Positions 23,357-25,542 of a DNA stretch of 64,000 nt are shown in pieces. Origin of the DNA: Eledone cirrhosa (Eukaryota); contig OZ024742.1 of NCBI GenBank assembly GCA_964016885.1, positions 336,598,001 through 336,662,000 on the forward strand, read 5' to 3'. A program made the translations under genes and the position numbers. How positions within the stretch are numbered: position 1 is the stretch's first letter; every line of letters starts with the position of its first letter. Below the pieces are notes generated by a model that was not told the DNA's origin, ran no database searches, and saw nothing but the letters and a program-made list of their open reading frames with translations.

Positions 23357-23980
23357 ATACATATATATATATATATACATACATATATACATACATATAT
23401 ATATATATATATATATACATATATATATATATATATATATATATATATATATATATATATATATATACATATATATATATATACATACATATATATATAT
23501 ATATATATATATACATATATATCTAAATGTTTCTTCTCTCTTCATAATGTATTTTTAACTCTGATACTGGTTCAGTCTAGTTCAAACTGAATTGGTCTGT
23601 CCCAGTCATTCATTGAGCAACATCGGTGAAGTTGGCACCCTTAACTCACAGTTGGGTGCGGATGCATTCATGTATATATGTGTGTGTCCGCATGTATCTG
23701 TGTGTTTCTAAATATATTAATAACTCCCTCTGGTCGAGCAATCTTTGAGGTGTGGGGACAACTGGAAAGCTTCCATTACTCATACTTCTCGCCTTCTTCA
23801 CTACCTCTTCTACGGCCTCGATATGAATACCCCCTCCGCCTCCGTGGTATTTTCTTCGTTGTTATAAGAGGCTTAGCTCTGTTTTTCGACCGTTATATCG
23901 CGTGACTATCTCCCCCTCCGCCTTTTGGGATTCTTTCTCACGTCGTGTGGACGCGTTCTTGAGACTAGTAAAATGAGGTA

Positions 23981-24068
23981 TCCTCTTGATAAGTCGGCAG
24001 ACCTCGCAAGGACTCTATATCTTTGATATATTGTTTTTGTTTATGCCACGAAACTACGTAGTCGAGGA
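23981..24068 (+). ncRNA. Type I hammerhead ribozyme, U3-A8 core variant (unit 1)
   Basis: tcctc TTGATAA gt(c)ggca...tgccac GAAA c tacgta GTC gagga; predicted cut after 24063. Confidence 0.75.
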
Positions 24069-24571
24069 ATTTAGGAACAGTTTAGGTATGATACATTTTA
24101 TTACTAATTATATCTAAATGTTTCTTCTCTCTTCATAATGTATTTTTAACTCTGATACTGGTTCAGTCTAGTTCAAACTGAATTGGTCTGTCCCAGTCAT
24201 TCATTGAGCAACATCGGTGAAGTTGGCACCCTTAACTCACAGTTGGGTGCGGATGCATTCATGTATATATGTGTGTGTCCGCATGTATCTGTGTGTTTCT
24301 AAATATATTAATAACTCCCTCTGGTCGAGCAATCTTTGAGGTGTGGGGACAACTGGAAAGCTTCCATTACTCATACTTCTCGCCTTCTTCACTACCTCTT
24401 CTACGGCCTCGATATGAATACCCCCTCCGCCTCCGTGGTATTTTCTTCGTTGTTATAAGAGGCTTAGCTCTGTTTTTCGACCGTTAAATCGCGTGACTAT
24501 CTCCCCCTCCGCCTTTTGGGATTCTTTCTCACGTCGTGTGGACGCGTTCTTGAGACTAGTAAAATGAGGTA

Positions 24572-24659
24572 TCCTCTTGATAAGTCGGCAGACCTCGCAA
24601 GGACTCTATATCTTTGATATATTGTTTTTGTTTATGCCACGAAACTACGTAGTCGAGGA
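24572..24659 (+). ncRNA. Type I hammerhead ribozyme, U3-A8 core variant (unit 2)
   Basis: Same motif, +591 bp. Confidence 0.75.
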
Positions 24660-25162
24660 ATTTAGGAACAGTTTAGGTATGATACATTTTATTACTAATT
24701 ATATCTAAATGTTTCTTCTCTCTTCATAATGTATTTTTAACTCTGATACTGGTTCAGTCTAGTTCAAACTGAATTGGTCTGTCCCAGTCATTCATTGAGC
24801 AACATCGGTGAAGTTGGCACCCTTAACTCACAGTTGGGTGCGGATGCATTCATGTATATATGTGTGTGTCCGCATGTATCTGTGTGTTTCTAAATATATT
24901 AATAACTCCCTCTGGTCGAGCAATCTTTGAGGTGTGGGGACAACTGGAAAGCTTCCATTACTCATACTTCTCGCCTTCTTCACTACCTCTTCTACGGCCT
25001 CGATATGAATACCCCCTCCGCCTCCGTGGTATTTTCTTCGTTGTTATAAGAGGCTTAGCTCTGTTTTTCGACCGTTATATCGCGTGACTATCTCCCCCTC
25101 CGCCTTTTGGGATTCTTTCTCACGTCGTGTGGACGCGTTCTTGAGACTAGTAAAATGAGGTA

Positions 25163-25250
25163 TCCTCTTGATAAGTCGGCAGACCTCGCAAGGACTCTAT
25201 ATCTTTGATATATTGTTTTTGTTTATGCCACGAAACTACGTAGTCGAGGA
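25163..25250 (+). ncRNA. Type I hammerhead ribozyme, U3-A8 core variant (unit 3)
   Basis: Same motif, +1182 bp. Confidence 0.75.
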
Positions 25251-25542
25251 ATTTAGGAACAGTTTAGGTATGATACATTTTATTACTAATTATATCTAAA
25301 TGTTTCTTCTCTCTTCATATATATATATATATATATATATATATATATATATATATATATATATATATATATATATATATATATATATACACATATATTT
25401 ATATATATATACATACATATATATATATATATATATATATATATATATATATATATATATATATATATATATATATATATATATATATTTATATATATAT
25501 ATATATATATATATATATATACATATATATATATATATATAT

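Follow-up and report, generated by a model that had tools for sequence, protein, structure and literature searches.

A hammerhead-bearing tandem array in Eledone cirrhosa, likely a recently inserted non-coding passenger of Penelope-like retrotransposons

The DNA analysed here, hereafter the window, is a stretch of 64,000 nucleotides from the Eledone cirrhosa assembly GCA_964016885.1 (contig OZ024742.1, positions 336,598,001 to 336,662,000 of the forward strand), and all coordinates are counted from its first letter. A tandem array occupies positions 23518 to 25319 on the plus strand. It consists of three units of 591 bp (23522-24112, 24113-24703 and 24704-25294) and a fourth copy (25295-25317) of the redundant "tail" sequence with which unit 1 opens; this last copy is the 3′ end of the element, and (TA)n comes directly after it. 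Units 1 and 3 are identical and unit 2 is unlike them solely at 24487. Indeed, from 23518 to 24728 every base equals the base 591 positions further on, with the sole exception of the pair 23896/24487, a unit position that reads T, A and T in units 1, 2 and 3, respectively. The self-match at this period is 0.998, against 0.34 for the best unrelated period. The span equals three times 591 bp plus 29 bp, and as four bases on the left and two or three on the right possibly belong to the (TA)n flanks, the terminal redundancy measures 22-29 bp. These flanks extend from 23357 to 23522 and from 25317 to 25544, the left one having TATA in common with the bases that precede the tail inside the array; since the target is itself (TA)n, any target-site duplication, which in non-LTR retrozymes is longer than 4 bp when present, is unreadable.

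The unit has a GC content of 41.5%, and the longest stop-free stretch within the array is 86 codons. A first-pass annotation made from the letters alone had described a near-identical 591-bp trimer with about 26 bp of terminal redundancy, inserted in (TA)n and devoid of a credible ORF, and the measurements bear out this description in each respect. The TRF tandem-repeat scan did not pick up the array, because the longest period it considers is 500. No ORF joining RT and GIY-YIG between pLTRs, as in autonomous EN+ Penelope-like elements (PLEs), was found within or adjoining the array, which rules it out as an autonomous PLE. Each unit also contains an 11-bp C-rich direct repeat, present twice (23831-23843 and 23914-23924). 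By eye, a splice-donor-like GT lies in the hairpin described below and is followed some 110 nt later by a pyrimidine-rich AG (24085-24200), and a donor-like GT is found at the matching place of a second hammerhead element of the window (20725-21350). The GT/AG pair could be an intron relic; PLE pLTRs are described as able to carry introns (PMC6765202).

Every unit carries a complete type I hammerhead motif on the plus strand, located at 23981-24068, 24572-24659 and 25163-25250, with predicted cuts at 24063/24064, 24654/24655 and 25245/25246. In the first copy, stem I has five Watson-Crick pairs (23981-85 with 24064-68), the core TTGATAA occupies 23986-92, with U3 at 23986 and A8 at 23991, and stem II (23993-99 with 24044-49) has six pairs, one bulge and G10.1-C11.1. 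The GAAA lies at 24050-53, stem III (24053-62) is a perfect 10-nt palindrome, and the GUC comes next, followed by the cut. All the features of a type I hammerhead are present, namely three stems round the core, an open-ended stem I, G12A13A14, A15.1-U16.1, NUH and G10.1-C11.1, and the 3-8 pair is Watson-Crick, as U3-A8, in the three units. When the unit was shuffled with its dinucleotides preserved and both strands were scanned, C3-G8 or U3-A8 cores being allowed, a loose motif appeared in 2 of 5000 shuffles, stems as long in 1 of 5000, and the palindrome as well in none. The hammerhead motif that the annotation had placed in each unit is thus upheld.

The same scan run on the whole window returned six further loose matches (2317+, 1382-, 44305-, 6085-, 1531- and 2889+) and missed the element at 20850. 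The Rfam hammerhead models gave no match to the motif, Rfam being a library criterion and not a mechanistic one, and its scan otherwise yielded microsatellite-driven miRNA matches alone, below the gathering score. Three other approaches were uninformative: a MAFFT alignment of four hammerhead motifs left the cores unaligned, the distance from CTGANGA to (TA)n does not discriminate in the window (26 of 55 heptamers lie at most 200 bases away), and a bacterial promoter scan, of a type irrelevant to this host, stayed at chance level.

The departure of the core from consensus had been read as a covariation and not as decay. This reading holds, given a fold whose U3-A8 pair preserves Watson-Crick pairing and the public run X1 (see below), where no other letter reaches 5 in 100 at these positions. 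It had also been presented as novel, which it is not: the U3-A8 covariation is already published (PMC3088659, PMC4209133), and natural hammerheads bearing it are reported to be active in vitro (PMC3088659). As judged from sequence, the array units carry a hammerhead-ribozyme motif with a rare, previously published U3-A8 core.

The whole unit or a part of it occurs in 20 public runs under 17 organism labels, and four of the 24 listed runs were examined. In X1, 1139 contigs fit the unit, at a summed depth of 1-5 x 10^5 that is not a copy number, in keeping with the multi-copy nature of non-LTR retrozymes; 501 of them have an identity to the unit of 99% or more, 371 of 95-99%, 181 of 90-95% and 86 of under 90%. 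Another letter reaches at least 5 in 100 at 11 of the 591 positions, none of them in the core. The possibility that other copies carry C3/G8, this locus being doubly mutated, was checked in this run, and from 5 in 100 upward no alternative letter is found at either 23986 or 23991, so that U3/A8 is the family state there and not a local double mutation. As few positions vary in X1, however, the invariance of the core is not by itself a demonstration of selection.

In eight X1 contigs the sequence passes from the unit into (TA)n at 24143, which matches the 3′ end of the window array, and the 5′ loose ends, among those listed, are at scattered positions. Depth at 23860-24099 exceeds that at 24160-24259 by a factor of about 1.6, the pattern expected from 5′ truncation, but it drops again at 23740-23819, and this non-monotonic rise towards the 3′ end is a weak one. 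At 23860, 23885 and 23949, the letter common to the three window units accounts for less than 0.1 in 100 of the X1 depth; if X1 comes from the same species, such rare letters common to all units point to one template.

The remaining runs are far thinner. X14 and X17 have three contigs each, at a depth of 2-7 and with the X1-majority letters, and the X14 contig that lies over the core has four other letters, every one outside it. X22 gave no reads in 1938 million letters, which is no test of absence. Two of the loose ends in X14 and X17 meet at the GACTC site 24011-24015, a junction of the sort expected from Hi-C ligation. In one X14 contig (depth 2.4), possibly chimeric, the unit gives way to unrelated sequence exactly at 24064, the predicted cut site. 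Horizontal transfer, to which the 17 labels might point, is not claimed, as trace carry-over of a high-copy repeat explains the depth of 2-7 in X14 and X17 equally well. A metagenome pattern scan returned 55 loci whose longest match to the unit was 26 bases, all taken as chance.

The window contains other elements of this kind. About 2 kb from the array, a second hammerhead element (20725-21350, minus strand) has the same layout in an unrelated sequence. It shows a C3-G8 core at 20850, a palindromic stem III and a mismatch at 10.1-11.1, and it ends in (TA)n; with a period of 528, a redundancy of 19-24 bp and an inverted 5′ piece, it is a tail-body-tail monomer, 20725-21270 being the 528-bp element. 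A third element is an inverted pair, at 1310-1600 (minus) and 2100-2430 (plus), with C3-G8 hammerhead-like motifs (cores at 1382 and 2317), and (TA)n begins 46 nt past the cut site of the plus copy.

Two broken PLEs are also present. The first (17164-20691) has a minus-strand ORF in three pieces, a CxCx5C linker, a 770-bp inverted terminal repeat and a (TA)n end. Its ORF matches P0001 (E 8e-110) and is near a cluster with RVT_1 on 20 in 100 members (Atlas), which is a lead only; the CxCx5C linker is the mark of the Hydra clade, to which its sequence would assign this PLE. A CTGATGA lies 75 nt before its end, but no full hammerhead was found there. The second (58262-59751, to 60075, plus strand) contains a GIY-YIG domain (PF01541, E 5.8e-5), a degenerate hammerhead-like core at 59960, 113 nt before the TA run in which it ends, and a Cx4CxxC linker, described as of the Neptune/Nematis type (bioRxiv 10.1101/2021.04.23.441226). 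Pfam returned no family for the three Hydra-type segments nor for 58262-59374, and nothing above cutoff for 4 of the 37 homologues tested. A search for homologues yielded no informative names. No homology was found between the 591-bp unit and the termini of either PLE.

Other retroelement sequences surround these. A non-LTR retrotransposon at 9879-14972 (plus strand) contains RVT_1 and zf-RVT (13047-14972) with an ORF1-like region upstream, and is GC-rich relative to the window. Two reverse transcriptase fragments (RVT_1) lie in opposite orientation at 49799-50775. Directly to the left of the array, between TA tracts, there is a 600-bp insert (22753-23358), similar in translation to 30638-31150; on its minus strand lies a stretch rich in C and H, which we take to be like a LINE C-terminus.

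The structure predicted for the RNA is specific to one strand. Folded as a circle, the plus-strand unit has a z of -5.75 (40 shuffles) and the minus strand one of -0.83; as a linear RNA, the plus strand has a z of -5.37, with none of 100 shuffles as good. The overall folding z of the second hammerhead element is -6.20. All 11 X1 variants leave the predicted pairs intact (five are at paired and six at unpaired positions), where 3.6 breaks are expected (P 0.005); in this test the fold is that of the window sequence itself, the variants cannot be counted as independent and four of the 11 changes are unable by type to break a pair. The unit 2 variant at 24487 also falls at an unpaired position of the predicted fold.

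The 72 nt between the cut site and the 3′ end (25246-25317, also 24064-24135 and in unit 2) are predicted to form a hairpin, with a z of -4.78 and 1 of 500 shuffles as good. Its 3′ arm is the tail, and hence the terminal redundancy. At the base of this hairpin, positions 24130-24134 are predicted to pair with the 3′ strand of stem I, with probabilities of 0.92-0.97, and this pairing would compete with the hammerhead. Indeed, stem I has a probability of 0.87 in a 100-nt fragment, of 0.0 in four longer contexts and of at most 0.04 in all 24 truncations tried, and the catalytic fold lies 1.1 kcal/mol above the minimum in the 100-nt fragment versus 5.0-8.0 kcal/mol in the longer contexts. Folding of a monomer cannot model a stem III dimer, and the stem III palindrome can pair between molecules (duplex -12.9 kcal/mol), a dimer arrangement through stem III being described for PLE hammerheads (PMC4209133, PMC6765202). 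With stem I sequestered in context, the folding models suggest that any cleavage would likely be slow, and would occur via a stem III dimer or with the help of a protein. A weaker, 57-nt hairpin to the 3′ end is predicted in the second hammerhead element (z -1.98, 15 of 500 shuffles), where its 3′ arm is again the redundancy. The third element (2317) has no tail hairpin (z +1.14), so that a post-cut hairpin is found in two of the three hammerhead elements examined.

We hold it highly probable that the array is a PLE-related hammerhead element. It likely inserted recently, and likely belongs to a known kind of element that encodes no protein and rides on Penelope-like retrotransposons. A link to PLEs, which the first-pass annotation had missed, would likely account for both the (TA)n target and the terminal redundancy. 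At the level of sequence, the array agrees with non-LTR retrozymes in every feature that could be read, and a PLE origin is likely. It comprises three units in a row, all with the complete type I motif, where the class asks for two or more, and these are non-coding, of GC below 50% and, by folding prediction, highly self-paired as RNA. Metazoan non-LTR retrozymes have the same composition, occur at high copy and commonly as dimers or trimers, and their mobilisation by PLEs has been proposed. The array differs from them by its U3-A8 core and by a ribozyme predicted to be blocked by self-pairing. No U3-A8 core inside a tandem retrozyme array was found in the open literature when exact spellings were used. 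The unit had been thought larger than typical retrozymes; it does exceed the 150-450 bp given for metazoan non-LTR retrozymes in the paper that defines the class (PMC7229834), yet it lies inside a published range of 51-972 bp, with a fish mean of 650 bp (bioRxiv 10.64898/2026.07.22.740005). The latter source also argues that retrozymes derive from PLE pLTRs. Consistent with a non-autonomous PLE derivative, the array has a hammerhead near its end, a short tail and a microsatellite target. Hydra PLEs are described as carrying hammerheads and inserting in (TA)n, and PLE tails as being 30-40 bp long and located at either end (bioRxiv 10.1101/2021.04.23.441226).

The closest published motifs are found in other PLEs. 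The minimal U3-A8 hammerheads of the Schistosoma mansoni Cercyon PLEs, for which about 1,300 motif matches are reported, share with the array a long stem II, a short stem I, a palindromic stem III and G10.1-C11.1; they are, however, heterogeneous and mostly single, whereas the array is a young tandem with a 3-pair stem III and without the extra base between positions 9 and 10.1 (PMC4209133). The Drosophila virilis Penelope variant described in the same paper resembles the array by a bulged base in stem II and a canonical-like palindromic stem III, but its stem I has two pairs and not five, and the array has no adjoining ORF. The anole Poseidon PLE PAc and the Hydra and Neptune PLEs, as described in PMC11167929 and bioRxiv 10.1101/2021.04.23.441226, also end in a stem-loop 70-90 nt past the cut, with a short tail, an AT-rich or (TA)n target and a ribozyme that is not freely active. 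The array differs from these by the lack of an RT-endonuclease ORF and by a tail of 22-29 and not 30-40 bp, and no sequence link to a PLE was found.

How was the array written? The 3′ end lies 72 nt past the cut and the insert crosses the cut site three times, so that a cut linear monomer cannot have been the template; this geometry leaves a circle, an uncut multimer or template jumps. We tentatively favor, at somewhat below an even chance, a single event in which a PLE reverse transcriptase/endonuclease went three times round one RNA circle. The first-pass annotation had likewise inferred self-cleavage into monomers, circles and rolling reverse transcription, without the PLE. Following published work on PLEs and retrozymes, tandem transcripts would be cut at the GUC and the monomers ligated by a host ligase. 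A PLE protein acting in trans would then nick AT-rich DNA and start reverse transcription internally, at the hairpin, which would place the tail (the 3′ arm of the hairpin) at both ends of the insert. This rating of the circle reflects the abundance of such retrozyme RNAs in coral, mussel and axolotl (PMC7229834) and the near identity of the units. The rare letters common to the units (if X1 is the same species), a structure confined to the plus strand and kept by the X1 variants, the same layout in the unrelated 528-bp element and the presence in the window of two PLEs ending in TA runs also speak for this route, and a circle-and-rolling model has been proposed for PLE tandems (PMC4209133). 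As for the internal start, the anole PLE is reported to begin reverse transcription in a stem-loop 111-118 nt into the ORF, the cut being at +26, that is, about 85-92 nt past the hammerhead cut, and two start sites bound its tail (PMC11167929).

Several observations count against the circle. The first is the predicted sequestration of stem I, whereas in most circles of metazoan retrozymes the ribozyme is predicted to stay free (PMC7229834). The second is the anole PLE itself, for which the in vitro results in PMC11167929 describe insertion from uncut RNA, without need for cleavage, a cleavage that is protein-assisted only, and no reads starting or ending at the cut. Moreover, eight of nine Xenopus retrozyme dimers are reported not to cleave in vitro (bioRxiv 10.64898/2026.07.22.740005). 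The absence of homology to the termini of the window PLEs, the non-monotonic X1 depth and the third element without a tail hairpin have to be added to these.

The reading that survives best beside the circle, although we think it on the whole unlikely, keeps the same element and the same PLE machinery and changes the template, to a multimeric transcript that was made from a homogeneous parent array and left uncut, to template jumps or to repeated insertion into the element's own tail; the hammerhead would then be a conserved pLTR relic or act at a different step. The anole and Xenopus results are readily accommodated here. An uncut multimer, however, needs a parent array of at least four units that already had the rare letters in common, although the family is diverse in X1, and the core pair is Watson-Crick family-wide, which fits selection for catalysis.

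Less probable still is that a PLE inserted a monomer with a tail at both ends, which then grew locally as DNA, the direct tails serving for unequal crossing-over or repair, so as to yield n units and one tail. The neighboring 528-bp element is exactly such a tail-body-tail monomer, amplification by unequal crossover has been proposed (bioRxiv 10.64898/2026.07.22.740005), and the common rare letters are explained equally well. We nevertheless doubt this course of events, since the first step would have just 22-29 bp of homology to work with and two rounds would be needed with almost no divergence.

An assembly error in the copy number of a real element is very improbable. It is true that the units are 99.8-100% identical and lie between long TA tracts, and that no array-spanning read or contig was seen in the examined runs. 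Yet one base sets unit 2 apart from the other two, no N occurs in the window, whose long TA tracts are resolved, and 1.8 kb should be within long-read range. Finally, the view that a hammerhead look-alike arose by chance in an ordinary satellite or MITE-like repeat, for which the lack of an Rfam match and a core off consensus at two positions could be invoked, has hardly any probability left, given a motif seen in 0 of 5000 shuffles, two departures that are complementary, structure on the plus strand only and a second family, with a C3-G8 core, that is laid out in the same way.

Returning to the circle, the broadest interpretation that we can offer, and one that we consider doubtful as a whole, would be that of a young, very high-copy retrozyme family with U3-A8 fixed, which escapes CUGANGA censuses, in which one hairpin would serve both as the start and tail of PLE reverse transcription and as a hammerhead off-switch that captures stem I, and whose internally identical arrays would be direct records of rolling-circle reverse transcription. 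Every ingredient of the locus is already in print, and the array is therefore a further example and not a surprise. It does suggest that retrozyme counts obtained with C3-G8 descriptors are underestimates. That the terminal redundancy coincides, in each of two unrelated families, with the 3′ arm of the hairpin behind the cut ties together the PLE tail, the start of reverse transcription and a possible off-switch.

What the hammerhead does in endonuclease-bearing PLEs is described as unclear (bioRxiv 10.1101/2021.04.23.441226), and the data point in opposite ways, the in vitro work describing insertion of uncut RNA (PMC11167929) and the retrozyme work abundant circles (PMC7229834). A young family with identical internal units, a defined 3′ end and a tail made of a hairpin arm is a good substrate to settle this role. 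If the interpretation above is true, the family would offer a natural way of testing whether ribozyme-made circles give rise to PLE tandems.
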